Part shown: piece after piece, positions 4,163 to 55,051 of the stretch
Layout of the letters: the number at the start of each line of letters is the position of its first letter
Numbering within the stretch: the first letter of the stretch is position 1
Assembly: GCA_023382875.1 (NCBI GenBank)
Contig: JAHDXH010000001.1
Span: forward strand, 18,571 to 82,570
Source: Patescibacteria group bacterium
GTDB lineage: Bacteria > Patescibacteriota > Microgenomatia > UBA1400 > PJMF01
Direction of reading: 5' to 3'
Length of the DNA: 64,000 nucleotides
Program-made: the position numbers and the translations under genes
The notes under the pieces: generated by a model
Told to the model about the DNA's origin: nothing
Seen by the model: only the letters and a program-made list of their open reading frames with translations
Databases searched by the model: none

Positions 4163-5332
4163 ATGAGTGATAGTGATAAAGTAAATAATCCACGATTTTT
4201 GATAGTCCAAGTGATTGATAAGCGCGCCGATGAAGTTGCTGTTGCTAATGATTTGTCAGAGACAGAGCAGTTAATTGACACTTTTGGTGGCATAGTAATT
4301 GATAAATTTATTCAGCGACGCGAACACCCTGATCCAAATTTTTACATTGGCGCTGGAAAAGTTGATGAGCTAAAAGAGGTTTGCAAGGCAGAAAAAATAG
4401 ACGTAGTTGTCATTAATGGCCAAGTCAAAAGTAGTCAGCTGTTTCGTATCGAAAAGGAGTTATGGGCAGTCTCAACTAAGATTATGGTTTGGGATCGAAT
4501 TGACTTAATCCTCAATATTTTTGATCAACATGCTTCAACGACAGAATCTAAGCTGCAGATTAAGCTTGCCCGCGCTACGCACATGGGTCCTAGGATTTAT
4601 GGTTTAGGTAAAACTGAGCTCTCTCGTCAAGGTGGTGGTGTTGGTACGCGCGGCAAAGGTGAAACCAACATTGAGTTTGAGCGTCGCCAAATCAAAATTG
4701 ATCAGCAAAAAATCAAGCAAGAACTCAAAAAATTATTAAAGCAAAAACATTCCCGACTCAAAAAAAGAAATGAATTGGGCATTGGTCCCGTGGCATTGGT
4801 TGGTTATACCAGCGCCGGTAAAACGACTTTATTTAATGCTTTGACCGGCAAGGAAAAAGAAATGAATAAGGGTTTGTTTACAACTTTGGATACCGTGGTA
4901 GGAAAGTTAAAAACTCCTGTTTTTGATCAGCCGATTTTGGTTTCTGACACAATTGGTTTTATTAATAATTTACCTCCAGTGTTGATCGATTCATTTAAGT
5001 CTACTTTGCTTGAATCACTAGAAGCTAAGCTACTTTTGCATGTGGTGGATGCTAACGATCCATTTATTTTGGAAAAAATTGCAGTTGTTGAGGATATTCT
5101 AAGTGGTTTGGGAGCGAGACAGCCGATGATTTTAGTTTTAAATAAAGTTGATTTACTCGATGAGGCAAAGCAAGATTCTTTAAAAGAGCAAGTGAACGAA
5201 TTTTTTGAAAAAAATAATGAAGAAGCTGATAAAAGTAATTTGAGATCAATTCAATTTGTCTCGGCAAAATCTGGATTTAATCTTGATGGACTTAAGGAAG
5301 AAATCGTAGGATTTTTTGAGGAGAAGAGATAA
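4163..5332 (+). CDS. hflX: GTPase HflX
   Basis: HflX N-domain followed by G-domain with G1 GYTSAGKTTLFNALTG, G3 DTIGF and G4 NKVD. 389 aa. Confidence 0.85.
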   Translation: MSDSDKVNNPRFLIVQVIDKRADEVAVANDLSETEQLIDTFGGIVIDKFIQRREHPDPNFYIGAGKVDELKEVCKAEKIDVVVINGQVKSSQLFRIEKELWAVSTKIMVWDRIDLILNIFDQHASTTESKLQIKLARATHMGPRIYGLGKTELSRQGGGVGTRGKGETNIEFERRQIKIDQQKIKQELKKLLKQKHSRLKKRNELGIGPVALVGYTSAGKTTLFNALTGKEKEMNKGLFTTLDTVVGKLKTPVFDQPILVSDTIGFINNLPPVLIDSFKSTLLESLEAKLLLHVVDANDPFILEKIAVVEDILSGLGARQPMILVLNKVDLLDEAKQDSLKEQVNEFFEKNNEEADKSNLRSIQFVSAKSGFNLDGLKEEIVGFFEEKR

Positions 5333-5337
5333 AGTGT

Positions 5338-5410
5338 TGATCCCGTGTCAGGATTCGAACCTAAGATAACTGATTCAGAGTCAGTTGTGATGCCACTTCA
5401 CTACACGGGA
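5338..5410 (-). tRNA. tRNA-Gln (anticodon CUG)
   Basis: Minus-strand read TCCCGTG-TA-GTGA-AGTGGCA-TCAC-A-ACTGA-CTCTGAA-TCAGT-TATC-TTAGGTTCGAATCCTGA-CACGGGA-T. Cloverleaf with 7-bp acceptor (U1-A72, as in bacterial tRNA-Gln), anticodon loop CT-CTG-AA and T-loop GGTTCGAATCC. CCA is not encoded. Confidence 0.7.
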
Positions 5411-5503
5411 GCGTTTCAAAGAAAATCCTTTGCTGACCTCAAGGCGTAATTATATACTCTACTGCTCCAATTTCCAAAATTAGTTTTTGCTATACTAAGC
5501 TAT

Positions 5504-5941
5504 ATGAAAAAATCCCCCTCCACCAGTAAGTCATCAGAAATGTCAGGTAAAAGAAATTTAGTCATGAGAGTTTACCTTTATATTTTCATGGGTATTGGTC
5601 TGGTGATGGTTTCAATTGGCGCTTTTGGTTTGGGTCAAAACATTTATAAATCAGCCCTCTTTCCTCGATACCCACTCGAATCATATAACGAAACCCGTTG
5701 TGACTATTTAGAAAATGGACCCTACCCAACTGACCCAGTCATGATGGGTAAAAATGATGCTGACACCAAAATGTTGATTGAACAAAACAAACAGCAAGCA
5801 GAAAAATGCCGTGCTTCTTTGGAAGAGGAACGAAAAATTAAAAAAGTGACTGATTTTTATAATTCATTAATTTTATTGGGAATTGGTTCAGTGTTGTTTG
5901 TCGGCCATTTGCTGGTCAACGTCAAAACTAATAATCGATGA
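5504..5941 (+). CDS. hypothetical membrane protein (2 TM flanking a soluble loop)
   Basis: 145 aa. Hydrophobic segments near residues 20-45 and 120-140. Stop overlaps the next start (ATGA at 5938). Confidence 0.45.
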   Translation: MKKSPSTSKSSEMSGKRNLVMRVYLYIFMGIGLVMVSIGAFGLGQNIYKSALFPRYPLESYNETRCDYLENGPYPTDPVMMGKNDADTKMLIEQNKQQAEKCRASLEEERKIKKVTDFYNSLILLGIGSVLFVGHLLVNVKTNNR

Positions 5942-11401: not shown

Positions 11402-11430
11402 TTGACTTTTTGATCTACTAATGCTATAAT
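11402..11430 (+). promoter_or_regulatory. near-consensus sigma70 promoter TTGACT-17-TATAAT, followed by operator-like inverted repeats
   Basis: TTGACT at 11402-11407 and TATAAT at 11425-11430. Downstream palindromes TCTTTTA-tatg-TAAAAGA (about 11438-11456), GTTAAAT-c-ATTTAAC and TGGCCTGGCCA in the 5' UTR of the GC-rich gene. Confidence 0.45.
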
Positions 11431-11638: not shown

Positions 11639-12535
11639 ATGGCAGCAGCACAGAATGTTTCTTCGGAAAAACGTGAAAGTTTCGATTTCGGCAAGTTCGT
11701 GTCGGATGTGGTCAGCAAGCTCCCCGCCCGTGATAAGGTGGCGGCTCGTCTCAACAAGATTGACCTCGTTCTGACCCCCTTCTACGCAGTGCTGATGGCA
11801 TGGGCAACCTACGCCATTGGTATCAATTTTCTTCGCTTCGGTCCTACCGACGTGGAGAGCCTGAACTATTTCGTCAGCCTGTACGCTGGACTGAGCCTCG
11901 TTGCCTTCGCTATCGTTCTGGTCGCCCTCTTCGAGAGTGTGCGCCGCAATGAAATCGGAGACATGGCGAAAGTCATCGCAGCCATCGCTATCAATTATGT
12001 GGCGATGCGTTACAACGGTACATGGCTTATGATGGTGCTGGCGTATGGCTTCGGCTTCTCGCTGGCGCACTCTGCATCCCGGAACGGTAAGTTAGACTGG
12101 ACACCGTTGGTCGCGTTCAACGCTTCCTTCATCGGTCTGGCGACCCAGATTTTTGGTTTCGCCGCCGCGTCCGTAGTCTGGCCCGTGCTGGTGGGTGTCG
12201 TGTTTCAGGCAGTAGAAGTTTTCCGCAATCAGGATTACCGCGCCGTAAGGCTGGCGGTGCCGGGGATGGTTATTGCTGTTCTCGGTCTGGTCTTGACCAT
12301 GAATCCCGTGCTGTGGATTTTGCTGGGGGCTTTGGTCAGCTTCGTTGTCGCTCCAACCGCGTTCAAGCTCTATGAGAGCAAGCACGCGAAACTGGAAGAT
12401 ACGGTCAAAAGCTGTGCCACTCCCTGCGCCGATTTCGACAATGGCATGAAGAACCTGCGGACAAACGCTGAAGCAGCAATGCTGACGCTCGTTTCGTCCT
12501 GCCTGTTTATCATCGTCATGGTCATGTTCTCGTAA
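11639..12535 (+). CDS. hypothetical 7-TM membrane protein encoded in a GC-rich island (codon usage unlike its neighbours)
   Basis: 298 aa and strongly hydrophobic. GC-rich third codon positions (ctg, gcc, ttc, cgc). No recognisable family. Confidence 0.5.
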   Translation: MAAAQNVSSEKRESFDFGKFVSDVVSKLPARDKVAARLNKIDLVLTPFYAVLMAWATYAIGINFLRFGPTDVESLNYFVSLYAGLSLVAFAIVLVALFESVRRNEIGDMAKVIAAIAINYVAMRYNGTWLMMVLAYGFGFSLAHSASRNGKLDWTPLVAFNASFIGLATQIFGFAAASVVWPVLVGVVFQAVEVFRNQDYRAVRLAVPGMVIAVLGLVLTMNPVLWILLGALVSFVVAPTAFKLYESKHAKLEDTVKSCATPCADFDNGMKNLRTNAEAAMLTLVSSCLFIIVMVMFS

Positions 12536-12559
12536 TGACTTTCACGGTCAACACAACGT

Positions 12560-12590
12560 AGGGCGCCTTCAAAGCGCCCTCGTTCTGTAT
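12560..12590 (+). terminator. intrinsic terminator-like hairpin AGGGCGC-cttcaaa-GCGCCCT followed by a T-rich tract
   Basis: Perfect 7-bp GC-rich stem at 12560-12580, then cgttctgtattt. Confidence 0.5.
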
Positions 12591-12602
12591 TTAGAGACAA
12601 AT

Positions 12603-37478: not shown

Positions 37479-37566
37479 TGGCGGAGGGGGCGGGATTCGA
37501 ACCCGCGGCAGCTTTCACCGCGGCGGTTTAGTAAACCGCTGCACTAGGCCACTATGCGACCCCTCC
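37479..37566 (-). tRNA. class II (long variable arm) tRNA, Ser-type, with anticodon loop TT-ACT-AA (apparent anticodon ACU)
   Basis: Minus-strand read GGAGGGG-TC-GCA-TAGTGGCCTAG-TGC-A-GCGGT-TTACTAA-ACCGC-[16-nt variable arm]-GCGGGTTCGAATCCCGC-CCCCTCC-G-CCA. Perfect acceptor and T stems, CCA encoded. One nucleotide away from a canonical tRNA-Ser(GCU) loop. Confidence 0.7.
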
Positions 37567-42415: not shown

Positions 42416-43630
42416 ATGAATAAAAAAATAATTGTCATTTTTCTGATTTTAGCTGTTTTGATTTTTGGTGGTTGGTGGTTTGTCAAAGATTACTTAGCTG
42501 TTGGTAGTAATGACTTTTCTTCGTTCAATATAAACGATGATTCTAATAACGAAGATTTTAAACAGAAAATCTCCCCAAGCACGGTGTCAGGAAATGCTCA
42601 AATAGTTAATTATAAAACCGAGTCAGTGGCGCAAGGTTTGCAAGTACCTTGGAGTTTGGTTTTCACTTCTAAAAATAGGATTTTAGTGACAGAGCGTCCT
42701 GGCAGGATTCGTGTAATTGAAAATGGTAACTTATTGCCTCAGCCCATTAGAACTTTTACAGTTTCCAATCAATCTGAAGAAGGTTTGATGGGAATGACCA
42801 CTGATCCTGATTATGATAAAAATAAATACATTTATTTGTGTATGGCTTATGGTGAGAGTGAGCCAATTTTTGACAAAGTAATGAGAGTGACAGATAAAGG
42901 TAGTGAGCTCAGCGATGACTTGGTTATCATTGATAAAATTCCAGCAGCTGAATTCCATGCTGGTTGCAGATTGCGCTTTGGTCCTGATAGTAAGTTGTAC
43001 GTGAGTACTGGCGATGCTAGGCAAAAAGAAAGGGCTCAAGATTTGGATTTTTTGGGCGGAAAAATTTTAAGATTGAATGCTGATGGAACAATTCCTGCTG
43101 ATAATCCCACTGCTGGTTCGCCTGTTTATAGCTATGGTCATCGCAATCCCCAAGGTTTTGATTGGCATCCTGTGACAGGCATGTTGGTAGCTACTGAACA
43201 TGGCCCATCTGGCAATGACGGCCCAGGTGGTGGCGATGAGTTAAATATTATCAAATCAAACCAAAACTACGGTTGGCCAGAAATATCACATCAGAAAACT
43301 AAAGCGGGCATGATTAGTCCTCTGCTTGAATGGACACCAGCCATTGCTCCGGCTTCAGGAATGTTTTATAAGGGGTTGGTTTTCCCCCAATTTACTAATA
43401 ACTATTTCTTTGGCATGTTGAGGGGCACCGGTATTGTAAGAGTGGTTTTTGATGAACAAAGTCCAGAAAAAGTTTTGAAAACAGAAAAGCTACCTGATGT
43501 TAATGTGGGCAGAGTTAGAGACATAGTTGAAGGGCCTGATGGCTTTATCTACTTTACTACTAGTAACAAAGATGGCCGTGGTAAGGCCAATGATGGCGAT
43601 GACCATATTTTCCGATTGGTTCCTGAGTAA
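42416..43630 (+). CDS. PQQ-dependent soluble sugar (glucose/sorbosone) dehydrogenase-like beta-propeller
   Basis: Signal/TM at the N-terminus. GDH/6PGL-family blocks GLMGMTTDPDY, HAGCRLRFGPD, HRNPQGFDW and HGPSGNDGPGGGDELN. Confidence 0.75.
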   Translation: MNKKIIVIFLILAVLIFGGWWFVKDYLAVGSNDFSSFNINDDSNNEDFKQKISPSTVSGNAQIVNYKTESVAQGLQVPWSLVFTSKNRILVTERPGRIRVIENGNLLPQPIRTFTVSNQSEEGLMGMTTDPDYDKNKYIYLCMAYGESEPIFDKVMRVTDKGSELSDDLVIIDKIPAAEFHAGCRLRFGPDSKLYVSTGDARQKERAQDLDFLGGKILRLNADGTIPADNPTAGSPVYSYGHRNPQGFDWHPVTGMLVATEHGPSGNDGPGGGDELNIIKSNQNYGWPEISHQKTKAGMISPLLEWTPAIAPASGMFYKGLVFPQFTNNYFFGMLRGTGIVRVVFDEQSPEKVLKTEKLPDVNVGRVRDIVEGPDGFIYFTTSNKDGRGKANDGDDHIFRLVPE

Positions 43631-43650
43631 TAATTTCCCTCAAGTAAATC

Positions 43651-43679
43651 TTGACAAAATGGCTTTTTAGGCCTATAAT
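43651..43679 (+). promoter_or_regulatory. perfect consensus sigma70 promoter TTGACA-17-TATAAT
   Basis: TTGACA at 43651-43656, 17-nt spacer, TATAAT at 43674-43679. Sits 37 nt upstream of the small ORF at 43716. Confidence 0.6.
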
Positions 43680-43715
43680 ATATTTAGTGTTAGCTCTTAA
43701 TGATCGGAGAAGACA

Positions 43716-43898
43716 ATGAGCGCACAAGATATTTTGAACGCGATGGATAAGGTTCGCCCAAATCATGGTTTGAAACTGCGGGACATTCAGTATTTCTTGA
43801 ACAACTCCGCTAACGTCAAACTCATGGAAGGGAAAACTGTTGAAGAAGTCGCCCGCTACATTTGTTCAGTTTATCTGGACATAGCTGGCACTTACTAA
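43716..43898 (+). CDS. small hypothetical protein (60 aa) with its own consensus promoter and terminator
   Basis: ORF MSAQDILNAMDKVRPNHGLKLRDIQYFLNNSANVKLMEGKTVEEVARYICSVYLDIAGTY. GC is higher than in the flanks. Confidence 0.45.
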   Translation: MSAQDILNAMDKVRPNHGLKLRDIQYFLNNSANVKLMEGKTVEEVARYICSVYLDIAGTY

Positions 43899-43920
43899 GC
43901 CATTAGCGTCATTGACAATA

Positions 43921-43953
43921 AAAAGCCAGCTGCATCACGCGCTGGCTTTTTTA
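43921..43953. terminator. bidirectional intrinsic terminator (AGCCAGC...GCTGGCT, A-tract upstream, T-tract downstream)
   Basis: 7-bp stem at 43924-43947 followed by TTTTTT. Shared by convergent genes. Confidence 0.6.
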
Positions 43954-44454
43954 CATCTTTCGACTGTCATAGGCCCAATGCAAAAGCGCTTGTCGTTGTT
44001 TTGGACGACAGGCTAAATCTCGAGTTCGACAGGCCTTTTTGAGTTGCGCGATGTGCCTCGAAATAGCTTTCCATCTTTTGATTTGTCTCTTATCATCTTC
44101 ATGTCGTCTGCCTAGGTAATACCGACAATACCATTGAAACCAACCTCGTGGGTCATCTGGATGAATCCAACCATTTCTCTTCCATATTGATAATGGCTGA
44201 CTTGCTTTAATGTGAAAGAAATTTAATTTGGAGTCTGGCTTTTGTGGTGAAAGCTTGGCATGATCAAACCAATCTTTGGGGAATTCGCTTTGGCAATCGG
44301 TTAGATAATGACCACCAAATACGCCTAGTTCTAGCATTTCTTTGGGGGTTAATTCCGGCTTGAATTCTTCGTCAAAATTTTCACCGATCGGCTCTGATAA
44401 TTCATACCAATAATTTTGCTGCATCTTGTCGTTAACAATAACGGTTGTGCTCAT
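43951..44454 (-). CDS. hypothetical protein (168 aa from ATG at 44454; the track ORF extends to 44532)
   Basis: Trp/Arg-rich C-half WFQWYCRYYLGRRHEDDKRQIKRW. No family recognised. Confidence 0.4.
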   Translation of the reverse strand: MSTTVIVNDKMQQNYWYELSEPIGENFDEEFKPELTPKEMLELGVFGGHYLTDCQSEFPKDWFDHAKLSPQKPDSKLNFFHIKASQPLSIWKRNGWIHPDDPRGWFQWYCRYYLGRRHEDDKRQIKRWKAISRHIAQLKKACRTRDLACRPKQRQALLHWAYDSRKM

Positions 44455-44462
44455 AATAAATA

Positions 44463-44858
44463 TTATGATTTTAGCTTGCCAACAACTATCGCAGTTATTG
44501 ATGATACTAAACTGCCAATGGTTGTTCCCCAAATCAAGTCAATTATAGTAATACTGAGTGGCCAGTTTTTTAATGTAGCTAAGTTAGTAAGATCATATGT
44601 TGCATAAGTAACAAGGCCAAAGAAGCCGCCCATTATAGCTGTCGATATTAAAGTTTTTTCTTGTTTTAAGGCAGGATTTATGACAAAAAAAGTTAATCCA
44701 GCAATAAATAATAAGTAAAAAATAATTGCCGCAATCCAATTAACTTCTGTTTTAAGTAAAAAGCCAATTTGCTTGTTGTAAATATCTCTGGCAATTATGC
44801 CTAGCCAAAGCATATCAATAACAAAGAACATAATGGTCGCAATTAAATAAGTTTTCAT
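44463..44858 (-). CDS. small integral membrane protein (DUF2177-like, 4 TM)
   Basis: 131 aa with four hydrophobic helices. Pattern resembles DUF2177. Confidence 0.45.
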   Translation of the reverse strand: MKTYLIATIMFFVIDMLWLGIIARDIYNKQIGFLLKTEVNWIAAIIFYLLFIAGLTFFVINPALKQEKTLISTAIMGGFFGLVTYATYDLTNLATLKNWPLSITIIDLIWGTTIGSLVSSITAIVVGKLKS

Positions 44859-45003
44859 AAATTTAATTCTATTCTTTTTTAATCTTAAAAATAAGTATTC
44901 TTTCTCTTTTCTTACATCATTTTAAGTGTGCGCTTGTTTTAAAAAACTATATTCAAATCATCTCATAGAGTGAGATTTTAAAAATTATTAAGGAACAAAG
45001 ACT

Positions 45004-46113
45004 ATGAAAATTGCTCAAATTGCTCCGATCGTTGAAAGAGTTCCGCCAAAAAAATATGGTGGTACGGAAAGAGTTGTCCACGTTCTGACTGAGGAGTTGG
45101 TAAAACTTGGACATGAGGTAACATTATTTGCGACTGCCGACTCAATAACATCGGCCAAACTAGTAGGAACCGTTGATAAAGGTTTGCGAGAAAAAAACAT
45201 TACCGATAGTTATACAAAAAATGGTTATACACTTTCCCATGTAGGTAAAGCCTATGATCGTTATAAAGAATTCGACATTATTCACGACCATGTCGGGGCT
45301 CTAAGTTTGCCAACAGCGAATATTTGTCCTAAGCCAGTTATTTCTACACTCCATGGTGCATTTTTTGATCATAATAAAAAACTTTATGAGAGTTTAAACA
45401 ATCCATATTTTGTAACAATTTCTGATGCTCAGGGTGAGCCTGTCCCCGATTTACACAAAGTAGCAACTGTTTACAACGGTTTAAACATGAGTCATTACCC
45501 TTTCGAAGATGAGCCAGAGGATTATCTTTTATATGTTGGCAGAATCGCGCCCATTAAAGGTACTCATCTTGCCGTGCAAATTGCCCATGAATTAGGTTTG
45601 CCGCTGATTATTGCTGCTAAGTTGGAAGAAGAAAACAAGGAGTACTTTGACAAAGAAGTTAAGCCATATCTTTCCTCTACTATTAGATGGGTGGGTGAAG
45701 TTGATGAAGAAGAAAGAAACAGATTAATGAGTAAGGCTAAGTGTTTTTTACACCCAGCGACGTGGGAAGAGCCTTTTGGTTTAACACTCATTGAAGCAAT
45801 GGCTTGTGGCTGTCCAGTAGTTGCTTTTAGCAAAGGTTCGATTCCCGAAATTATTGAAGATAAAAAAACCGGTTTTGTGGTCAAAGATCTTAAAGAAATG
45901 GCAACTGCTATTTTATCGATTGAACAAATTGATCGTTGGTATTGCCGTGAATATGCTTTGACTAAGTTTAATGCTCAAAAAATGGCTGAACAATACGAAA
46001 GTCTATATTACTTAATCTTAGGTCAGACAGTTAAGGACTTTGAGCCTGACTATGATTATGTGCAATCAATTAGACCAAGGCTTAGTGCTTATAGAGAATT
46101 AATGTTTACTTAA
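45004..46113 (+). CDS. family 4 glycosyltransferase (GT-B)
   Basis: C-terminal GT4 signature EPFGLTLIEAMACGCPVVAF...GFVV. 369 aa. Confidence 0.8.
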   Translation: MKIAQIAPIVERVPPKKYGGTERVVHVLTEELVKLGHEVTLFATADSITSAKLVGTVDKGLREKNITDSYTKNGYTLSHVGKAYDRYKEFDIIHDHVGALSLPTANICPKPVISTLHGAFFDHNKKLYESLNNPYFVTISDAQGEPVPDLHKVATVYNGLNMSHYPFEDEPEDYLLYVGRIAPIKGTHLAVQIAHELGLPLIIAAKLEEENKEYFDKEVKPYLSSTIRWVGEVDEEERNRLMSKAKCFLHPATWEEPFGLTLIEAMACGCPVVAFSKGSIPEIIEDKKTGFVVKDLKEMATAILSIEQIDRWYCREYALTKFNAQKMAEQYESLYYLILGQTVKDFEPDYDYVQSIRPRLSAYRELMFT

Positions 46114-46192
46114 TTCTTACAAGAATTTGTCGAAAAATTATTGACTCAATTTATAAACTAAGTTGAACATTAAAAAATAAAGAAAGGAAATC

Positions 46193-46447
46193 ATGAATAT
46201 ACTTTTATGGTTAATTCTTGGAGCAGTGTCGGGTTGGATTGCTTCAATGATTATGAAAACTGATCAACAGCAAGGAATATTCCTCGATGTCGTTTTAGGC
46301 ATCGTAGGGGCAGTAATCGGCGGAACTTTAATGAGCTTCTTTGGACAACCAGGAGCAACAGGTTTCAACTTTTACAGTCTCTTTGTCTCAGTTTTAGGCG
46401 CCGTGGCCTTGCTTTCACTGGGAAAATTTTTCTCAAGATCTCACTAA
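46193..46447 (+). CDS. GlsB/YeaQ/YmgE-family stress membrane protein
   Basis: WLILGAVSGWIASMIM...DVVLGIVGAVIGG is the characteristic transglycosylase-associated protein motif. 84 aa. Confidence 0.75.
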   Translation: MNILLWLILGAVSGWIASMIMKTDQQQGIFLDVVLGIVGAVIGGTLMSFFGQPGATGFNFYSLFVSVLGAVALLSLGKFFSRSH

Positions 46448-46470
46448 TTATTAGTTGCTAGTTGAGATGG

Positions 46471-46508
46471 TTGGGCCGGGGTGAATCGCCCCGGCCCAAT
46501 TTGATTTG
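46471..46508 (+). terminator. intrinsic terminator GGGCCGGGG-tgaatc-GCCCCGGCCC followed by a T-rich run
   Basis: 10-bp GC stem at 46471-46499, then AATTTGATTTG. Confidence 0.65.
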
Positions 46509-46542
46509 CTAAAATCAAAACAGACTTTATGATATTAAAGAA

Positions 46543-47109
46543 ATGAAAGATCAATCTTTAAGGGAAATTATTAGCGATGTTTCTCACGACCTCCAGTCAA
46601 AAATAATGTCGATTAAAGCTCAAGTTTATTTGGCTAGACATGGCAAAGGAGACTTGGAAAAAGTGGAAACTGAATTGCAACAATTAAGCCGTTTACTTGA
46701 TGACTTAACTTCATTGCTAGTTATTAATGGCAGCCATAATAATATTCAAAAAAAGGAAATAAAGTTGGAAAATTTTTTTGGTTTTCTTTCACAAAATTTT
46801 TCTTTGACACTAAAAATAGATCCAAATTTAATTCAAAATTATTCCATGTCGACCAATGAAGATTTGTTGAATTGGTTTTTTAAAATGTTTGAAAAATATC
46901 TAGTTTTAAAAAAATACTCGCAAAAAGTTAAGATAGTTGTTTCTCAAAAGAAAAACAAAGTAGAGATTAAATATTATTTTGATAAATCAACAAAACAAGA
47001 AAATAAGCCAAGGCTAATAAATTTTTATTTATTTGCTTTGAAAACTGCAGCGACGGTTTTAAACATTTCTTTTTCTATGGAAGAAGACGTTTATTCTTTG
47101 ATTGTGTAA
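46543..47109 (+). CDS. histidine-kinase-like protein with a DHp (HisKA) domain but degenerate or absent ATP-binding G-boxes
   Basis: H-box VSHDLQSKIMSIKAQ, but no recognisable N, G1 or G2 boxes downstream. 188 aa. 3' end overlaps the convergent regulator by 19 bp. Confidence 0.5.
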   Translation: MKDQSLREIISDVSHDLQSKIMSIKAQVYLARHGKGDLEKVETELQQLSRLLDDLTSLLVINGSHNNIQKKEIKLENFFGFLSQNFSLTLKIDPNLIQNYSMSTNEDLLNWFFKMFEKYLVLKKYSQKVKIVVSQKKNKVEIKYYFDKSTKQENKPRLINFYLFALKTAATVLNISFSMEEDVYSLIV

Positions 47110-47762
47110 CCAAAGCCGCGTACTGATTTGATCAATTTGTCTTTGTGGTCACGGTCAATTTTTTTTCTTAAATAGCCCATATAAACATCTACGACTCTAC
47201 TCTCAACCTCAAACGAGTATGCCCAAATTTTATTAAGAATCATATCTCTAGAAATTACTTTTCTTGAATTTTGCATTAGGTACTGCAAAAGCTCGAATTC
47301 TCTTGGGGTGAGATTGATAGTTTTTCCTGCTCTTTTGACTTCAATTTTTTCACTATCAAGTTCGAGGTCTCCAATTTTCAAAATACTATTGGAAATATTT
47401 TTTTGTCTTAAACGAGCTTTAATTCTGACTAATAATTCTTCTGTTTCAAATGGTTTGGTAACATAATCATCTGCCCCAAGATCAAAGCCTTGAATTTTGG
47501 CATTCAAAGAATTTTTGGCCGTTAACATAATGACTGGCAAACTGGCAAACTGTTTTTTGATTTGAGCGCAAACACTTTCACCATTAATATCGGGAAGTTC
47601 TAAATCTAGTAAAACTAAGTCGGGAGTAATTTCGTTGAGAATCTGCAAACCGCTAGTGCCTTTTGGTGTGCTTTTGACAATATAACCTTGATCAGTCAAT
47701 ATATTTTCTAAAAATGACCGAGTAGAATTATCGTCTTCTATCACCAATACGATTGGATGCAT
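47091..47762 (-). CDS. OmpR/PhoB-family response regulator
   Basis: Receiver (VLVIEDD, D in LVLLDLELPDING, TAK, KPF) plus winged helix (VDVYMGYLRKKID...SVRGFGYTI). Confidence 0.85.
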   Translation of the reverse strand: MHPIVLVIEDDNSTRSFLENILTDQGYIVKSTPKGTSGLQILNEITPDLVLLDLELPDINGESVCAQIKKQFASLPVIMLTAKNSLNAKIQGFDLGADDYVTKPFETEELLVRIKARLRQKNISNSILKIGDLELDSEKIEVKRAGKTINLTPREFELLQYLMQNSRKVISRDMILNKIWAYSFEVESRVVDVYMGYLRKKIDRDHKDKLIKSVRGFGYTIKE

Positions 47763-47821
47763 AGCCAGATTATACCCTATGATTAAAAATCATATGTACT
47801 ATAATCGCACTCAACTTCATT

Positions 47822-50359
47822 ATGAGACCACTGTTTTTACAGCGCATCATAGATCGGCTGGTTACAGCAATACCGGTTACTATTTTAATTTTAGGTCTCT
47901 CTCTCACATTAATTTCCGCTTATTACATTGATAGATCTAGTCAAGAAAAAGAGTTAAAAGATTTCACTAATTCCACAAAAATGGTGGAAAAGAGAATTAA
48001 GGATGCAGCTTCGTTTTATAGTACTTTGCTTTTTTCAACTAGATCGTATCTTTATAGTGATGAGTATGTAACTCAAGAATCATTTGGAAAATTTGCCAAA
48101 AATCTTCATTCTGGAAAAGCTTACTTAGGTATTGATGGTGTTGGTTTTGTTTCGACAGTTCCCTATTCTCAAAAAAGCAATTTTATTAATGAACTTAGGA
48201 CCAATGGTGCTGTAGTTGATTTGGATAACGACATCAATGAAGAAGAGCCGAGTCAAATTGTCGCCTATCTAGAACCTCAGGACTTAAGAAATCAAGCCAT
48301 GATTGGTTTGGATTTTTCTCACCAAGAAACCTTTAGACAAGCTATGAATAAATCTAAAGCAGACGGGGTAGTTGCTAGTAGTGGCCGAGTGTTAATGCAA
48401 CAACCGATGGGAGATCAGTCTGATGCCGGCTTTGTTTCTTTCCTGCCAGTCTATAGTTCATCTAGTTTGCCAAATGTACAGGAAGATAGATTAAAAGAAA
48501 CAAAAGGTTTTGTTTTCATTATTTTCAACGTTAGGGATTTTTTTGGTCAAATATTTTCTGAAAATAGTACTGCGCCAGTTAATTTTAGTATTTTTGAGTC
48601 AACTGGTGAAAATGAACAACGACTTTTGTATACATCAGAAGCTGATGATCAATATAAACCTAGGTTAAAACTTTCAGAAAAAATTGATATTTTAGGCAAG
48701 TCGTGGACAATTAATTACACCAACAAAGCATCGAGTGATATTACTTCGGTTCGTCACTCTGTGCCAATGTTGGTAATCATTGGTTTATTGTTAACAGCAA
48801 TTATCTATGTCATTACTGAATCGCAAATTAAAGCTCGCTTCACTGCAGAAAAAACTCAGCGAGAACTTTTTGAAGCAAAATCATCAGTTCAAGCTAGCGA
48901 AGAAAAATTAAGACTTTTGATTCAAGAATCAAAAGAATATGCCATTGTGATGCTAAGCAAAACCGGCCGAATTATTAGTTGGAATTCTGGAGCTGAGCAG
49001 CTATTTGGATTCACAGAGGTTGAAGTATTGAACAAAGACTATGCCGCACTTTTTTCTGATAAAGAAAGAAAAAAAAGAATACCAAAAAAAGAATTATCAG
49101 CAGCTTTACAAAAAAATATACATAAATTTGAAAGACACTTTGCTACCAAAAATGGAACTGTTTTTTGGTTAAGCGGGGTTCTTAATACTGTTTATGATAA
49201 TGACCATTTGTTAAAAGGTTACGCACTAATTGCTAGAGATGTCTCAGATAGAAAAAAGTGGGAGGAAGCAGTGGTTAAAAACCAACAACAAACACAGGCC
49301 ATTTTAGACTCATTGAGGTCTGGAGTGGTAGTGATTAACCGCTTGGGACAAGTGATCGCCTTCAATCAAGTTTGGGAAAAAATGAGAGAACATAACTTGG
49401 CAAATGTGAAAAAGAAATTAGCCTTGGGTGAAAATTTGCTGGAAGCATTGCAAAAATCAGAAAGTGTTAATAACGAAGATTCACAGTTAGCCTTGAAAGG
49501 TATTCAGAAAGTTATTAATAAAACAGCCAAGCACTTTTGGCATGAGTATCAAATTTTTGATGCTAACAATGATGAGAGATGGTACCACTTGCAAGTTACG
49601 CCTTTAAAACAAGAAGAAGACCGGGTGGTGATTGCCTATACCAACATTACCGAAAGAAAAAAGCTAGAAAAACAAAAAGATGACTTTTTAAGAATTGCCA
49701 GCCACGAGCTCAAGACCCCAATTACTTCTACTAAGGCCTACGCTCAAGTTTTGATTAAAATGCTGAATGATAAGAAAAGCGAGAATAACACAGTTAGGTT
49801 ATTAACCAAAATGGATCAGCAGCTGAATAAAGTGACAAAGTTAATTAATGATTTGCTTGATGTTTCTAAAATTGAAGCCGGTCTGTTAAAGCTTAACAAC
49901 CAATATTTTGAATTTGATATTCTCGTTAATGAAATTGTTGAGGCTGTTCAGCTGACGAATGGTGACCACCAGATTGTGGTTAAAGGTAAAACCAAAAAAA
50001 GACTTTATTCTGATCCAGAAAGGTTGGGTCAAGTTTTAACCAACTTGTTGATTAATGCAATTAAGTTTTCTACCAAAAAAAGACGAATTTATTTGATCTG
50101 TGAAGTTAAGAGTGGAGATATTTTAGTTGAAGTCAAAGATTCTGGAGTTGGTATTAGTGAAGACGATCAGAAAAACCTATTCCAAAGATTTTTCAGAGTC
50201 CAAGCTCCTGAATTTCAAGGTCAATCGGGCTTAGGTTTGGGACTTTATATTTCTGCGGAAATTATTAAGCGGCTTGGAGGTGAAATTGGTGTAAAAAGTG
50301 AATTAGGTAAGGGTTCTACTTTCTACTTTTCATTGCCAATCGAAAATGAAAAAAAATAA
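47822..50359 (+). CDS. membrane sensor histidine kinase with a periplasmic sensor domain, two PAS domains, HisKA and HATPase_c
   Basis: TM at residues about 13-35 and about 314-334 flanking a roughly 270-aa extracytoplasmic domain. Two PAS domains. H-box RIASHELKTPITS. N-box NLLINAIKFS. G-boxes DSGVGIS and GLGLGL. Confidence 0.85.
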   Translation: MRPLFLQRIIDRLVTAIPVTILILGLSLTLISAYYIDRSSQEKELKDFTNSTKMVEKRIKDAASFYSTLLFSTRSYLYSDEYVTQESFGKFAKNLHSGKAYLGIDGVGFVSTVPYSQKSNFINELRTNGAVVDLDNDINEEEPSQIVAYLEPQDLRNQAMIGLDFSHQETFRQAMNKSKADGVVASSGRVLMQQPMGDQSDAGFVSFLPVYSSSSLPNVQEDRLKETKGFVFIIFNVRDFFGQIFSENSTAPVNFSIFESTGENEQRLLYTSEADDQYKPRLKLSEKIDILGKSWTINYTNKASSDITSVRHSVPMLVIIGLLLTAIIYVITESQIKARFTAEKTQRELFEAKSSVQASEEKLRLLIQESKEYAIVMLSKTGRIISWNSGAEQLFGFTEVEVLNKDYAALFSDKERKKRIPKKELSAALQKNIHKFERHFATKNGTVFWLSGVLNTVYDNDHLLKGYALIARDVSDRKKWEEAVVKNQQQTQAILDSLRSGVVVINRLGQVIAFNQVWEKMREHNLANVKKKLALGENLLEALQKSESVNNEDSQLALKGIQKVINKTAKHFWHEYQIFDANNDERWYHLQVTPLKQEEDRVVIAYTNITERKKLEKQKDDFLRIASHELKTPITSTKAYAQVLIKMLNDKKSENNTVRLLTKMDQQLNKVTKLINDLLDVSKIEAGLLKLNNQYFEFDILVNEIVEAVQLTNGDHQIVVKGKTKKRLYSDPERLGQVLTNLLINAIKFSTKKRRIYLICEVKSGDILVEVKDSGVGISEDDQKNLFQRFFRVQAPEFQGQSGLGLGLYISAEIIKRLGGEIGVKSELGKGSTFYFSLPIENEKK

Positions 50360-50720
50360 TCAGTATAAAATTCTAGTAATTGATGATGATAGCGCCATTG
50401 TTGACGCTACCAAAATGATTTTGGAATTGGAAGGGTATTTAGTTCAGGGGCAAACTGATGGTCATTCGGTCAAAAAAATTATTCAATATAAACCAGATTT
50501 AATCTTTTTAGATTTGTGGTTGTCCAATATAGATGGTCGAGAATTTTGTCAGAAGTTAAAAGCTAACCCTAAGACAAAAAATATTCCTGTTTTATTTTTC
50601 AGTGCTAGTAGAAGTATTGAATTGAATGCCCAACAAGCTCAAGCAGATGCCTATCTTTCCAAACCTTTCGAGATGGATTTATTGTTGGAAAAAGTTAGAG
50701 AGTTATTGAAAATAGACTAA
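50346..50720 (+). CDS. single-domain response regulator (CheY-like receiver)
   Basis: ILVIDDD, phospho-acceptor D in LIFLDLWLSNIDG, SAS and KPF. Overlaps the kinase stop by 14 nt. Confidence 0.8.
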   Translation: MKKNNQYKILVIDDDSAIVDATKMILELEGYLVQGQTDGHSVKKIIQYKPDLIFLDLWLSNIDGREFCQKLKANPKTKNIPVLFFSASRSIELNAQQAQADAYLSKPFEMDLLLEKVRELLKID

Positions 50721-51151
50721 AGTTCTAGTTCTTCGATTTTAGTAGAACCAATCTTTTTCATAGGATCAACTAATTCTTCACTGGTGATTTTAGTAACGTC
50801 TGTTTTAGTTTCGTAAGCAATCATTAACCCCTGAATAATTTCTACCACTTCCCTAGCCTCTCGCGAAGGTAAATAGGGTATGACAATTTTAGGTGAATAC
50901 GGAATATTGTTGACAATTTCTATGGAACTAAGGAAGTAGGCATTTTCTAATTTGACACTAGAAATATTATTGATCAGCATCGATTCTGCATGGTGTCCTA
51001 AAAAGAAGTACCTAATAAAAATAATTTTAGTTTTTTCAACACTTAGGACAGAAGGAAATATTTGAAAAGGAAAAACTGTTTTGACGGAGCAAATAATGTT
51101 GTCACTGTCTGCTGCTAGTGATTCAAGTTTATCATTTTCCATACGAAACAA
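50717..51151 (-). CDS. hypothetical protein (144 aa)
   Basis: No recognisable motif. Convergent to the receiver gene. Confidence 0.35.
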   Translation of the reverse strand: MFRMENDKLESLAADSDNIICSVKTVFPFQIFPSVLSVEKTKIIFIRYFFLGHHAESMLINNISSVKLENAYFLSSIEIVNNIPYSPKIVIPYLPSREAREVVEIIQGLMIAYETKTDVTKITSEELVDPMKKIGSTKIEELEL

Positions 51152-51314
51152 TTATTCATTTTTAGTGTGTGAAATTAGAGTTGTTTTTTGTGTGAATTTG
51201 GTAATAAAAACAGCTCTTACAAAATTCTAACTTTTAACTTGTTAAGTTTTTATATTGGTTTTATATATTGATATTAGTTTGAGTCAAAAGTATTAAATAA
51301 AATAGAAAGGGATT

Positions 51315-51818
51315 ATGAAAGCAGTTTTACTTGGACTATTTGCAGACAGCAAAAATGCAGGCTTAGCGGTAGCAGAACTAAAAGAAAAAGGTTATACCAA
51401 GGAAATTTCAGTCTTAGCTCGCAACAGCAAAACAGACACCGATGTCTATGAAGTTAAACAAGATGTCACTGAGGGTGCTGCAGTAGGTGCCACGGTTGGT
51501 GTTGCCACTGGTTTACTTGCAGGACTTTTTAGTGGCATTTCTATGATTGCTGTTCCTGGTCTTGGTTTGCTCGTTGGTGGTCCACTGGCGGCACTTTTAG
51601 GGCTTGCTGGTGGTGTAGTTGGATCAGTGGGCGGCGGTTTACTGGGAGCTTTGATTGATTTTGGAGTCAACGAAGCAACAGCGGAAGTTTATGACAAGGC
51701 TATTCAGCGAAATGAAGTTTTGATCGGAGTTACTACCGAAGAAAGTACAGTGGCTTCAGTCACTGACATTATGAATAAGCATTCTGCAAATAATATTTCT
51801 ATAGTACATAAAGGCTAA
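51315..51818 (+). CDS. general-stress-protein-like protein: YflT-type N-domain fused to a glycine-zipper membrane segment
   Basis: N-terminus VLLGLFADSKNAGLAVAELKEKGY resembles the YflT (GSP17M) domain. Gly-zipper GAAVGATVGVATGLLAGLFSGISMIAVPGLGLLVGG. Confidence 0.5.
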   Translation: MKAVLLGLFADSKNAGLAVAELKEKGYTKEISVLARNSKTDTDVYEVKQDVTEGAAVGATVGVATGLLAGLFSGISMIAVPGLGLLVGGPLAALLGLAGGVVGSVGGGLLGALIDFGVNEATAEVYDKAIQRNEVLIGVTTEESTVASVTDIMNKHSANNISIVHKG

Positions 51819-51839
51819 ATATTGTAGAATCAATCTAAT

Positions 51840-52157
51840 ATGCAATTAAATATTCTCTCCTCTGTTATTAATATATTTTTAATGATCGTTGAAGTGTTGC
51901 TCTCTTTGAGATTTTTACTGAAGTTTTTTGGTGCTAATGTTTCTGCTCCTTTTACTCAGTGGATTTATAACAACACTGAGCCACTCTTGGCACCATTTGC
52001 TAACATCTTCCCTGCTCCAAGAATTGATGGAACTTTTACAATCGAATTTACTTCGCTATTTGCCATCATTATTTATATGATCATTGGCCATATGTTGATT
52101 GAAGCGCTCGAATTTATTTCGTACAACGCAACTCGCAGTTCCTCAAAGAGGAACTAG
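51840..52157 (+). CDS. YggT-family membrane protein
   Basis: LRFLLKFFGANVSAPFTQWIYNNTEPLLAPF matches the YggT/Ycf19 signature. 105 aa. Confidence 0.6.
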   Translation: MQLNILSSVINIFLMIVEVLLSLRFLLKFFGANVSAPFTQWIYNNTEPLLAPFANIFPAPRIDGTFTIEFTSLFAIIIYMIIGHMLIEALEFISYNATRSSSKRN

Positions 52158-52180
52158 TTTAATAAAAATATAAAGGAATT

Positions 52181-52525
52181 ATGAAACAACTTTTCCATCT
52201 CATTTTAAGTATGCTGGCTTTGTTGATCACTTCATATTTAGTGCCAGGTTTTGAAGTAGAAAGTTTTTGGGCAACGCTAGCAACGGTAGTCGTGCTTAGT
52301 ATTGTTAATATTTTGGTCAAGCCGATTATGATGTTAATTACTTTGCCGCTTAATATTTTGACTTTAGGTCTATTCACCTTTGTTATCAATGGTTTGATGT
52401 TAAAAATTGCTTCATCAGTTGTACCTGGCTTTGTTGTGATAGGTTGGATGCCAGCGATTATTGGTGGTATCGTATTGGGCTTGGTGTCCGCGGTACTTTT
52501 TGGAATGGCTGGCGAAGATCGCTAA
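52181..52525 (+). CDS. DUF360 / phage-holin-4-like small membrane protein
   Basis: 114 aa with 3-4 TM. Pattern VPGFEVESFW...VNGLMLKIAS..VPGFVVIGW is typical of Phage_holin_4_2/YvlD-like proteins. Confidence 0.55.
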   Translation: MKQLFHLILSMLALLITSYLVPGFEVESFWATLATVVVLSIVNILVKPIMMLITLPLNILTLGLFTFVINGLMLKIASSVVPGFVVIGWMPAIIGGIVLGLVSAVLFGMAGEDR

Positions 52526-52546
52526 AAATAAGTTCAAAGAAATAAG

Positions 52547-52975
52547 TTAAAGGAAGCGCGCGAGCGCTTCTTTTAGTTCTGCTAATTCTGATTGAGTTGG
52601 TTGATATGATCTTTCTTCTTTAGCTACTGCCCAAATGGCGGTATGTGCCAATTTATCTGTTTTATTTCTGGGAATAAGGTGCCAATGGGCGTGTGCATCA
52701 GTATTACCAAGCATTTCGTAATTTAATTTGTCAGGTGTGAATGCCTGATAGACAGCGTGAGCCACTTGAGCCATTTCCTCAAGGTATTTTTCCCTAAAAC
52801 CACTCTCCAATTCATGAAGCTCGTGGACGTGCATTTTGCACAAAAATAAAGTATAGCCACGATAGCTTTGATGATCAGCTAAAACTACATAGCCAGTTTC
52901 TAACTCTTTGACGAAATAAGGATTTTGTTCTTTTTTGATTAACTCAATTCGTTCACAAACAAGACAATTATTCAT
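52547..52975 (-). CDS. HIT-family hydrolase. The preferred start is ATG 52975 (MNNCLVCERIE). The track ORF uses TTG at 53011.
   Basis: N-terminal CxxC zinc motif and histidine triad DAHAHWHLIPR. Confidence 0.7.
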   Translation of the reverse strand: MNNCLVCERIELIKKEQNPYFVKELETGYVVLADHQSYRGYTLFLCKMHVHELHELESGFREKYLEEMAQVAHAVYQAFTPDKLNYEMLGNTDAHAHWHLIPRNKTDKLAHTAIWAVAKEERSYQPTQSELAELKEALARFL

Positions 52976-53019
52976 TTGATGTAATTTTAGACTACGATAA
53001 ACTCGTATCAACTAGTAGA

Positions 53020-53517
53020 ATGAGCACAATGAAAAGTAATAAAAACATGGATTATATTTGTCCTATCTGTCTGGGTAATAGTGGTGTCGAAAGCACCGAT
53101 ACTTTACTGAAGCAAAATGATCTAGTTTTTCGAGATGACTTAGTGAGTGTTTGGATTAATTCTTTTTGGGTTGGAAAAAACAAGGGTCATTTGATAGTTG
53201 TTCCCAATCAACACTTTGTTACACTTTGGGATTTGCCCACGGAAGTTGGTCATAGAATTTTTGAAGTTTCGAAATTGATGGCGGTGGCTTTAAAAGAAGT
53301 TTATAAGTGTGATGGGGTTACTCTTCGTCAAAACAACGAGTCAGCTGGTGATCAACACGCTTTCCATTATCATCAACATATTTTTCCTCGTTATATTAAT
53401 GACGATTTCAATCAAAAATTGGTTGAAAAAAGTACTCTTTCTGATCCACAAGAAAGAATTGTTTACGTAAAAAAGCTGCGTAGGTATTTAGAAGAAAGCG
53501 TTGATATTAAGATCTGA
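53020..53517 (+). CDS. HIT-family hydrolase (second, divergent copy). An alternative start is the internal Met at 53047 (MDYICPICLG).
   Basis: CPICLGN zinc motif and histidine triad HAFHYHQHIFPR. Confidence 0.7.
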   Translation: MSTMKSNKNMDYICPICLGNSGVESTDTLLKQNDLVFRDDLVSVWINSFWVGKNKGHLIVVPNQHFVTLWDLPTEVGHRIFEVSKLMAVALKEVYKCDGVTLRQNNESAGDQHAFHYHQHIFPRYINDDFNQKLVEKSTLSDPQERIVYVKKLRRYLEESVDIKI

Positions 53518-53533
53518 TTGATATGGTTTGTGC

Positions 53534-53562
53534 TTGACATCTTACATGCTCAAAAATATAAT
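53534..53562 (+). promoter_or_regulatory. perfect consensus sigma70 promoter TTGACA-17-TATAAT driving the T-box-like leader
   Basis: TTGACA at 53534-53539, 17-nt spacer, TATAAT at 53557-53562. Confidence 0.65.
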
Positions 53563-53569
53563 CCCATGA

Positions 53570-53816
53570 CTGAGAGTCAATGAAATTCGGTTGAGTGGAA
53601 GTCGCGCTCCACGAGTCTTCTTTGTAAATATAGAGAAGAACGAAGCTTGGCAAAATCCAAGCCGGAAAACCCGTCATAGTTAAGTTGTTTGCACTAGAAA
53701 TGCAAACAAAATTAAGGCACTTAAGATGTTAATTGAGTGCGAAGAAGGATGGTACCGCGTTGTAAAAACGCTCCTTCAACTATTGATAATAAACAATGGT
53801 TGGAAGAGCGTTTTTT
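53570..53816 (+). promoter_or_regulatory. candidate T-box riboswitch leader (antiterminator and terminator) upstream of an uncharacterised three-gene operon
   Basis: AGGATGGTACCGCG at 53746-53759 (T-box consensus AGGGUGGNACCGCG). Antiterminator GAAGGA-[UGGUACC]-GCG-loop-CGC-UCCUUC. Competing 15-bp terminator AAACGCTCCTTCAAC / GTTGGAAGAGCGTTT plus TTTTTT (53766-53816). AGAGA box near 53632. CCGTCA at 53670-53675. Confidence 0.55.
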
Positions 53817-53860
53817 AGTATCAAGAATTAATTTAAAAATTTGTAAAGATTATTCGTATT

Positions 53861-55051
53861 ATGTTAAGCACCAGAAAAGATGACGAGCATTTAGTAGACA
53901 CAGAACAATTGTGGTCTGAGCGATTTGATTTTAGCGACACAGCTCAATTTCCTTTGATTGCTCTGGAAATATTGGCGGCAATTCCAACTGACGGAACTGA
54001 AGAAGAGAGATTGGTTGGCCAGTTCGCAGATACACTGAGAGCTATGGTTGCTGATCCAGAAAAACAAACATTGTTATTTGCCAAGCTGTTAGAAATAAAT
54101 CCAAATTACCAGCCAAAATTGTATAGTCAAGATGCCAAGGCTAATGTTTTAGCTAATGTTGTGGCCGCTATTTATGCTCCATTAATCCATGCTTTTACAG
54201 GTAGTGTTTTGAAAAATATTCAGGCAGGAATTTTATCTCCAGTGGTGATTGCGCCACCACGTGATGGAATCCCTTTTGCCAATTCAATTAAGGCACAAGC
54301 TGATTTAAAAGGTGTCGCAATCAAAGTCATTGATTTACAAGTTACCAGAAAAGTAGCTGGTATCAGTAATCAACAAGGCCAAAATGGTCATGTGTCCAAC
54401 CCCGATCCATTGTTAGAGGAATATATTGCACAAGAATTAGGTCCATATTTTGAACAAGGTTTTACCGAAATTGAACCAGGAATTTATTCAACTACTAGTA
54501 TGGTGACAGCAGGTTTGGCATCTAAAATGGGTAATGAAAAATATACAGCGCTTAAACTTTATGGACTCGGACCAAACCTTAGCTTTGTTCACGCAATTTT
54601 AAGTGGTGGACAAGAATGGGTCGCAGAAAGAGCCGAGTCTCAAGGCTTAGTCGATCCAGGAAAAATTGCCAACTTGATGACACTTTTGGATTCTACTGAG
54701 GAATTCGGAATGCAACATATGCATGCCTCAGTTTCTAGTTTAAAAAGAAATGAGCAGGGTTTGGTTAAGCCAGATATTAGAGAATCAGAACCAGAAAACT
54801 TAGCAATCGCTATCGCTTCAAATTTAGCTATTACAGATACTGCGGAAATGTATTCAAATAATGAGTTGGCGTTACAAACTGCAACAAGTATTATTGATCA
54901 ATTTGACGAAATTGTGGCTTTGGCAAATCAAGGATTTCCTCTTTGTTTGACTAGCTTGATCCCACCGGGGAAAATTGATAATAAAATTACATTATTTGAA
55001 AAAATAAGAAGTAGCAAGTTACTCAACTTGCCATCAGGTTTAAACTTATAA
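53861..55051 (+). CDS. hypothetical protein (396 aa, soluble), first gene of the T-box-controlled operon
   Basis: Clean ORF starting 45 nt after the leader terminator. No family recognised. Confidence 0.4.
   Translation: MLSTRKDDEHLVDTEQLWSERFDFSDTAQFPLIALEILAAIPTDGTEEERLVGQFADTLRAMVADPEKQTLLFAKLLEINPNYQPKLYSQDAKANVLANVVAAIYAPLIHAFTGSVLKNIQAGILSPVVIAPPRDGIPFANSIKAQADLKGVAIKVIDLQVTRKVAGISNQQGQNGHVSNPDPLLEEYIAQELGPYFEQGFTEIEPGIYSTTSMVTAGLASKMGNEKYTALKLYGLGPNLSFVHAILSGGQEWVAERAESQGLVDPGKIANLMTLLDSTEEFGMQHMHASVSSLKRNEQGLVKPDIRESEPENLAIAIASNLAITDTAEMYSNNELALQTATSIIDQFDEIVALANQGFPLCLTSLIPPGKIDNKITLFEKIRSSKLLNLPSGLNL

Follow-up and report, generated by a model that had tools for sequence, protein, structure and literature searches.

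The veg gene of Bacillus subtilis (Pfam Veg/DUF1021) is monocistronic, codes for 86 amino acids (aa), is read from a famously strong near-consensus promoter of the housekeeping sigma factor and ends at a terminator; the mechanism of its product is poorly understood. The lpp and cspA genes of Escherichia coli are small, highly expressed and furnished with structured or stabilising 5' untranslated regions (UTRs), lpp coding for a secreted lipoprotein and cspA for a beta-barrel nucleic-acid binder. Helical modulators of 45-90 aa, e.g. Hha/YmoA, Sda and the Spo0E-like or anti-sigma-like adaptors, act stoichiometrically on another protein, and SgrS/SgrT, RNAIII/hld and SR1/SR1P are dual-function small RNAs (sRNAs). 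The locus described here lies in a 64,000-nucleotide (nt) stretch from a Patescibacteria group bacterium (GCA_023382875.1, contig JAHDXH010000001.1, positions 18,571 to 82,570), the whole of which is called the window. At 43716-43898 on its plus strand is a 60-codon open reading frame (ORF) which, judged from its sequence and that of its homologues, is very probably an autonomous gene that is kept together with a consensus promoter, a short leader and a terminator.

The gene resembles veg in being small and monocistronic, in its near-consensus promoter and terminator and in its small soluble product, but it has no sequence or family relationship with veg (no family member matches Veg/DUF1021 in Pfam at E up to 10). 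Its protein is predicted to be all-helical, and it is confined to a handful of genomes of the Candidate Phyla Radiation (CPR), in contrast to the broad clade of veg. With lpp and cspA it shares the stand-alone unit, strong promoter, good ribosome-binding site, conserved 5' UTR and strong intrinsic terminator; its product is homologous to neither, lacks a signal peptide, and is helical and acidic. Hha/YmoA, Sda and the Spo0E-like or anti-sigma-like adaptors are similar in size, all-helical and free of enzymatic motifs, but they serve as an analogy only, as there is no homology or significant fold match to the 60-aa protein. The dual-function sRNAs are likewise short, independently transcribed, terminator-bounded RNAs with a small ORF, whereas at this locus it is the protein that is strongly constrained, and RNA structure is not seen to be conserved beyond a 5' stem and the terminator.

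Coding sequence and protein family

The ORF had been singled out by a first-pass annotation, made by a model from the letters of the window, and is present with the translation given there. An identical protein is already annotated in NCBI as hypothetical (MCL4208071.1, hypothetical protein KJZ63_00345, Patescibacteria group bacterium); its sequence opens MSAQDILNAMDK and includes the peptide LRDIQYFLNNSANVK. The upstream gene, of the GSDH family, ends at 43630. Local GC content is indeed higher than in the neighbourhood, as the first pass remarked, but the excess is modest (43.2% in the ORF vs a window mean of 37.5%, with 11.5% of 200-nt windows equal or higher).

By its pattern of substitution the ORF is a real protein-coding gene under purifying selection. 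Three intact 60-aa orthologues are available with their DNA (L001, L003 and L004, at 93, 87 and 80% identity). Among these and the window the pairwise dN/dS (omega) is 0.04-0.12, with dS from 0.6 to above 1.4, and substitutions fall mostly at third positions, e.g. 11/4/25 at codon positions 1/2/3. Between the window and L001 omega is 0.044 for the small ORF and 0.014-0.146 for the GSDH, Na/Ca-exchanger, glyoxalase-fold and convergent 167-aa genes. The frame is also open in homologues at 61%, ~40-53% and 40% identity, the DNA of the 40-60% homologues being saturated with substitutions. Low omega and third-position bias are thus accompanied by seven intact homologous sequences, from 93% down to 40% identity, and the sole disrupted copy is explained by the insertion of an insertion sequence (IS). 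Frame-breaking indels in relatives, which the first pass had named as evidence that would speak against a protein gene, are not seen in homologues down to 40% identity. Strong purifying selection on the protein means that the ORF is not an incidental one.

The family is a very small orphan family, as far as sequence searches reach. An exhaustive HMMER search of 1.84 billion representative proteins gave three genuine additions only, P0006 at 61 aa, P0009 at 86 aa (it carries an insertion) and P0011 at 77 aa; P0007, P0008, P0010 and P0012 from the same search are low-complexity or repeat artefacts. A profile search of a 5.8-billion-cluster database added no relatives, and the family amounts to 8 clusters among ~15 billion proteins. 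The earlier statement that the product has no recognisable family is borne out by every collection searched. Pfam gives no family for the window protein, the best match over seven members being RsbRD_N at E = 0.0031 for a single member. NCBIfam gives only GreA (E = 0.16, 11.7 bits vs a cut-off of 159), the best PHROGs match has E = 0.12 and is not significant, PADLOC gives no match, and the best hits of a profile search of PDB sequences are antibody fragments at E = 0.14. A relationship with GreA/GreB was considered and rejected: the score is far from the cut-off, the protein is predicted to have four short helices and not a long coiled coil, and greA is adjacent in one lineage only. No paralogue was found in the window, a tblastn candidate at ~12200-12346 (two distant members, E = 0.011 and 0.65) lying antisense inside a 298-aa membrane-protein ORF. 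Literature searches brought up nothing on the accession or locus tag, nor on highly expressed small proteins of Patescibacteria.

Fifteen positions are invariant in the seven aligned members, including H17, G18, D23, F27, L28, N30, A32, N33, G39, A46, Y48 and L54. Position 50 is Cys in six of the seven and His in the other, and the C-terminal third is more variable than the N-terminal two thirds. The isoelectric point (pI) is 4.8-6.5 across the family, i.e. mildly acidic, with no basic surface excess; the grand average of hydropathy is -0.02 to -0.58, and there is no signal peptide or hydrophobic segment. AlphaFold2 predicts a four-helix bundle with helices at residues 3-13, 21-28, 31-37 and 42-56 (mean confidence score, pLDDT, 84 and 85, two alignments agreeing). 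Foldseek searches with the model against PDB and BFVD gave nothing below E = 1.

Those members that can be placed are, on sequence grounds, Patescibacteria (CPR). The placement covers the window (by its NCBI label), L005, which shares an ArsB/HxlR/FMN-reductase block with the window, and L008, for whose ABC-F protein the best relatives with a name belong to Saccharibacteria, Roizmanbacteria and Nomurabacteria; it leaves out L006/L007. No family member was found in representative genomes of 185,579 species. Scans of genome and metagenome collections with protein patterns and a degenerate DNA pattern returned only the IS-disrupted allele again (L010, which equals L002, and L011); L009, from the same pattern scans, contains a stop codon and is a chance match. 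In the disrupted allele, from JGI 3300013132 and a sister sample, ATC stands in place of the start codon, a single inserted base brings an upstream ATG without a Shine-Dalgarno (SD) sequence into frame, and the gene is broken after codon 39-40 by an IS3-family element (orfA 105 aa, orfB 287 aa). The element lies at 5130-5259 of L002, whose contig ends inside it, and at 205-1510 of L011, and its orfB has the look of a DDE-type integrase. As the IS3-like element disrupts one natural allele, at least one natural population can do without the gene.

Promoter, leader and terminator

The perfect promoter of the first-pass annotation, TTGACA-17-TATAAT at 43651-43679, is present as claimed and precedes the ORF, the gap between its -10 hexamer and the ATG being 36 nt where 37 had been counted. 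On the plus strand the -35 hexamer TTGACA occupies 43651-43656, with an invariant C at 43650 just 5' of it. The 17-nt spacer (43657-43673) is made up of an A-tract (43657-59), a variable core (43660-65) and the invariant TTTAGGCC (43666-73). The -10 hexamer TATAAT (43674-43679) is invariant across the close loci and is followed by a predicted start element TAG at 43685-43687. TTTAGGCC consists of a T-tract and a G-rich segment and contains an 8-bp palindrome, TAGGCCTA (43668-43675), that extends into the -10 hexamer. This arrangement matches the element map of Kuo et al. (bioRxiv 10.1101/2025.01.23.634641), in which the UP region has a C at its 3' end, the spacer falls into four regions (AT-tract, low-signal core, second AT-tract and G-rich end) and bacterial core promoters have a YRR/YRY start element at +7/8.

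Across five closely related loci, conservation is divided sharply between these parts. CTTGACAAA, which comprises the -35 hexamer and its flanks, TTTAGGCC and TATAAT are each 100% identical, the spacer core 44%, the spacer between SD and ATG 64% and codon positions 1/2/3 88/95/63%. Identity in the six bases 3' of the -10 hexamer (43680-85) is 60%, rises to 97% precisely at 43686 and is 96.8% over the 25 bases from there (AGTGTTAGCTCTTAATGATCGGAGA). The sequence Y-A-G at this point is kept in all five. Transcription therefore likely starts near A43686, as predicted from the jump in conservation, its distance of 7 bases past the -10 hexamer and its position within the conserved Y-A-G.

The hexamers match the consensus at 12 of 12 positions in seven of eight loci, which represent three of the four divergent lineages; in L005 and L008 the spacers are 17 and 18 nt. 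CTTGACAAA(A), invariant in the five close loci, recurs in both, as does the combination of C-TTGACA-AA with AGKCC-TATAAT, which is found at no other place in the window or the loci. Invariant hexamers alongside a variable spacer core and discriminator, with the same features in L005 and L008, mark this as a sigma-70-type promoter, and the simplest reading of its layout is selection for maximal initiation. The AGKCC immediately 5' of TATAAT is in each locus confined to the small gene; an AGGCC spacer element as a genome-wide promoter feature was accordingly rejected. As a G-rich spacer end is a generic property of strong promoters, the element can be accounted for without an operator. The match at 43651 is the sole one of 12 of 12 within 38-50 kb of the window. 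Perfect TTGACA-17-TATAAT was called rare, and against a chance expectation of 0.04 per window it is; three copies are nonetheless observed (1859, 43651 and 53534), so that such promoters are real signals and are not unique to the small gene.

The 5' UTR of ~30 nt (43686-43715, plus strand) carries the conserved block AGUGUUAGCUCUUAAUGAUCGGAGA and the SD sequence GGAG at 43706-43709, 6 nt 5' of the ATG. A stem is predicted between its bases +2 to +11 and AUGAGCGCAC, i.e. the start codon and codons 2-3, with the SD in the loop, and one compensatory pair (U-A to A-U) is found in L005. In L008 the UTR and the start codon are also paired, through an unrelated 9-bp helix of UCAGUCAUU with AAUGACUGA that again leaves the SD in its loop (z = -2.3). 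A 5' stem is suggested by these folding models.

Downstream of the coding sequence a 3' UTR of 21 nt (43899-43919, plus strand; 56% identity among close loci) is unconserved and leads into a predicted bidirectional intrinsic terminator. A hairpin followed by T6 had been placed at 43921-43953; it is there, shifted one base to the left (43920-43952). It reads A5-GCCAGC-(10-nt loop)-GCUGGC-T6, with A5 at 43920-24, GCCAGC at 43925-30, GCUGGC at 43941-46 and T6 at 43947-52, and was missed by a simple terminator scan because its loop exceeds 8 nt. RNAfold forms the hairpin on both strands, with a U-run in each direction (on the minus strand -22.3 kcal/mol, then UUUUUAUUGU), in keeping with the first-pass description of it as strong and bidirectional. 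The convergent minus-strand gene has its stop codon (43951-43953) partly within the T-run, and the terminator would thus be truly bidirectional. The hairpin is 96% identical among close loci and shows one compensatory change, G-C to A-U, in L005. In the five-sequence alignment only two helices, the terminator and the 5' stem, are supported, by one compensatory change each.

With a promoter and terminator of its own, as had been claimed, the gene is supported by its sequence as a stand-alone monocistronic transcription unit. All distant homologues have GGAG, a distance of 36-41 nt from the -10 hexamer to the start codon and a hairpin with T-run, and the latter is found 3' of every intact homologue. 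Comparison of the loci shows the cassette of promoter, UTR and terminator to be under selection and to move with the gene between genomic contexts. In L005 the small gene is adjoined by a transfer RNA (tRNA) and a CBS/ArsB block, in L006/L007 it is upstream of greA, and in L008 it stands between SDR and unknown genes. No gene is consistently adjacent across the four genomic contexts. A functional link to the convergent 167-aa gene, with which the terminator is common, was rejected, that gene being absent from L005, L006 and L008.

Proposed function and alternatives

The following sequence of events would account for the locus. From a sigma-70-type promoter with all recognised elements at their optimum (C at -36, TTGACA, A-tract, T-tract and G-rich spacer end, TATAAT, a spacing of 17 nt and a YRR start 7 nt downstream), transcription would start at about A43686, and expression would be constitutive and very high. 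The mRNA, of ~265 nt, would present its GGAG in a short conserved 5' UTR and end at the strong bidirectional terminator, and the stem between its 5' end and the region of the start codon may have a role in stabilising the message or in tuning initiation. The product would be a soluble, mildly acidic four-helix protein of 60 residues. It may need no enzyme-like partner gene and work by binding another cellular component stoichiometrically, not by catalysis. A protein or a small ligand or metal would be a more likely partner than DNA, with contacts from the invariant polar residues His17, Asp23, Asn30, Asn33 and Tyr48, plus Cys50 (His in one homologue). That the product is an abundant partner-binding protein is put forward tentatively, at somewhat less than even chances; the explanation as a whole, in which the gene and its cassette are blended with this mechanism, is considered probable.

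A promoter kept at consensus in divergent relatives fits high expression, and the acidic pI argues against a classical DNA-binding regulator. Several points weigh on the other side. Consensus promoters can be limited at promoter escape, for which reason very high expression is something we infer from selection on the signals. The L006/L007 promoter is weaker, TTATCT-17-TGaTACAAT, an extended -10 promoter with 8 of 12 matches. The 5' stem is energetically weak, with z from -0.9 to +0.7 in two lineages; the stem of the window (z = -0.9) does no better than shuffled sequences. The AlphaFold2 models were built on very shallow alignments of 4 and 7 sequences.

None of four rival explanations is favoured by the data. 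A small DNA-binding autoregulator, in which helices 2 and 3 would form a helix-turn-helix (HTH) on the palindrome TAGGCCTA and expression would be strong but self-limited, is suggested by the invariance of that palindrome in the five close loci, by a 14-bp perfect palindrome TTATAGGCCTATAA in L005 and by the overlap of the palindrome with the -10 hexamer in six of eight loci. The AGKCC-TATAAT element is unique to the small gene in each locus, the model has a helix, a 2-residue turn and a helix at residues 21-37, and there is a faint PHROG match to 'CI-like repressor' (E = 0.21). The palindrome is however lost in L008 (AGTCCTA) and L006 despite the conserved protein, half of it is the -10 hexamer itself, and the T-tract and G-rich spacer end are a generic strength-enhancing feature. 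As the putative recognition helix has only 7 residues, no HTH family is matched in Pfam, NCBIfam or PDB, and the acidic family pI comes without basic surface excess, such a regulator is held to be unlikely. Much the same low probability is given to a small metal- or redox-active protein, metallochaperone-like or a thiol-based sensor, that would work through His17 and Cys50, possibly across a dimer interface. His17 is invariant in seven of seven aligned members, as are Asp23 and Tyr48, and the change of position 50 from Cys to His in one member is a ligand-for-ligand swap; the neighbours in the clade of the window are related to redox and metal functions and comprise an FMN reductase, a glyoxalase-fold protein, a Na/Ca exchanger and a PQQ-type GSDH. 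These neighbours are not conserved in L006 or L008, though, most members have one Cys and one His per chain, and none of the metal-protein families, CsoR/RcnR and CopZ among them, shows similarity.

The idea that the transcript is a regulatory RNA, either an sRNA with an incidental ORF, as the first-pass annotation had allowed, or a dual-function RNA like SgrS/SgrT or RNAIII/hld, draws on the folding of the whole transcript, which is better than that of shuffles (z = -4.7), on the 5' UTR being 97% conserved over 25 nt, and on codons 1-4 and ~13-27, which have few synonymous changes among close relatives. Much of the folding score is supplied by the terminator hairpin, however, and the UTR sequence is unconserved in L006 and L008. 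Many pairs of the coding-region structure are broken in L005 (covariation term +1.68, unfavourable), and a search of 43000-44600 against Rfam is empty even at E up to 1, as is this region at the gathering threshold in a scan of the whole window. With strong purifying selection on the protein (omega 0.04-0.12, frame kept at 40-60% identity), the incidental-ORF form of this idea does not hold, and a regulatory RNA of either kind is very improbable. Equally hard to credit is the precursor of a secreted or processed peptide (bacteriocin-type, or a ribosomally synthesised and post-translationally modified peptide, RiPP), or one member of a toxin/immunity or toxin/antitoxin pair. The small size, strong independent expression signals, narrow patchy distribution and variable C-terminal third would suit it, but the four contexts share no neighbouring gene for a modifying enzyme, transporter, toxin or partner, neither PADLOC nor the NCBIfam leader peptides are matched, and the protein, without signal peptide or hydrophobic segment, is predicted to fold as a compact domain over residues 3-56. 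A more specific identity, i.e. a lineage-specific, very abundant accessory factor of a core machine of these episymbionts with reduced genomes (e.g. RNA polymerase, ribosome, nucleoid or envelope), a metal or redox buffer, or a regulator of its own promoter via TAGGCCTA, is rated as rather doubtful.

Surrounding features and significance

The convergent gene on the minus strand (43951-44454) is of 167 aa in relatives, its longest ORF running to 44532 and giving up to 193 aa from an upstream TTG. Its protein has the motif GWFQWYCRYYLGRRHEDDKRQIKRW and no Pfam or NCBIfam family, and the gene is conserved (omega ~0.08) in L001, L003 and L004. From this gene to a HIT-family gene there are ~9 kb in the window (44460-53020) and ~2 kb of different genes in L001 (5740-7650), and by this comparison the interval is an indel hot spot between otherwise syntenic genomes. 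In the window it holds DUF2177, a GT4 glycosyltransferase, a Transgly_assoc protein, a HisKA-like ORF, a response regulator and an 845-aa PAS histidine kinase. In L006, greA (5201-5800), downstream of the 86-aa homologue, is called at 199 aa and overlaps the small gene and its terminator; its true start is probably ~40 codons further downstream, past the terminator at ~5290-5320.

Of the two other perfect promoters, that at 1859-1887 precedes a 253-aa HisKA/HATPase_c-like ORF (1917-2678) by 30 nt, and this ORF and a response-regulator-like ORF are convergent. The other, at 53534-53562, is upstream of a sub-threshold match to the T-box leader (RF00230, 53581-53778; 38.1 bits vs a gathering score of 93, E = 3.6e-7) that includes the T-box motif AGGAUGGUACCGCG and a terminator-like hairpin with T-run (~53767-53815). 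Downstream is a 396-aa ORF (53861-55051) without a Pfam family. The sequence at 53534-53860 is possibly a divergent T-box riboswitch, here in a CPR genome, that would control this uncharacterised ORF. A GC island of 52-58% over ~11700-12600 (window 37.5%) coincides with a 298-aa multi-pass membrane-protein ORF (11639-12535), which is preceded by a promoter of 11/12 matches at 11402-11430; the island, at 11639-12535, may be horizontally acquired. A tRNA-Ser with the unusual anticodon ACT is called by ARAGORN at 37479-37566 on the minus strand, and Rfam confirms a tRNA there (53.8 bits).

The small gene is an ordinary monocistronic gene and an uncharacterised orphan, and it challenges no current concept. 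Its conserved cassette is a natural example of selection on every element of a sigma-70 promoter. To our knowledge CPR bacteria are so far without genetic tools and no such expression parts have been characterised for them; the cassette offers a candidate strong promoter, UTR and terminator for these bacteria. If its expression is indeed very high, the 60-aa protein would be among the most abundant of these Patescibacteria. Being then both abundant and without a known relative, fold neighbour or partner, it would make a compact target, of a size suited to nuclear magnetic resonance (NMR), for CPR cell biology.

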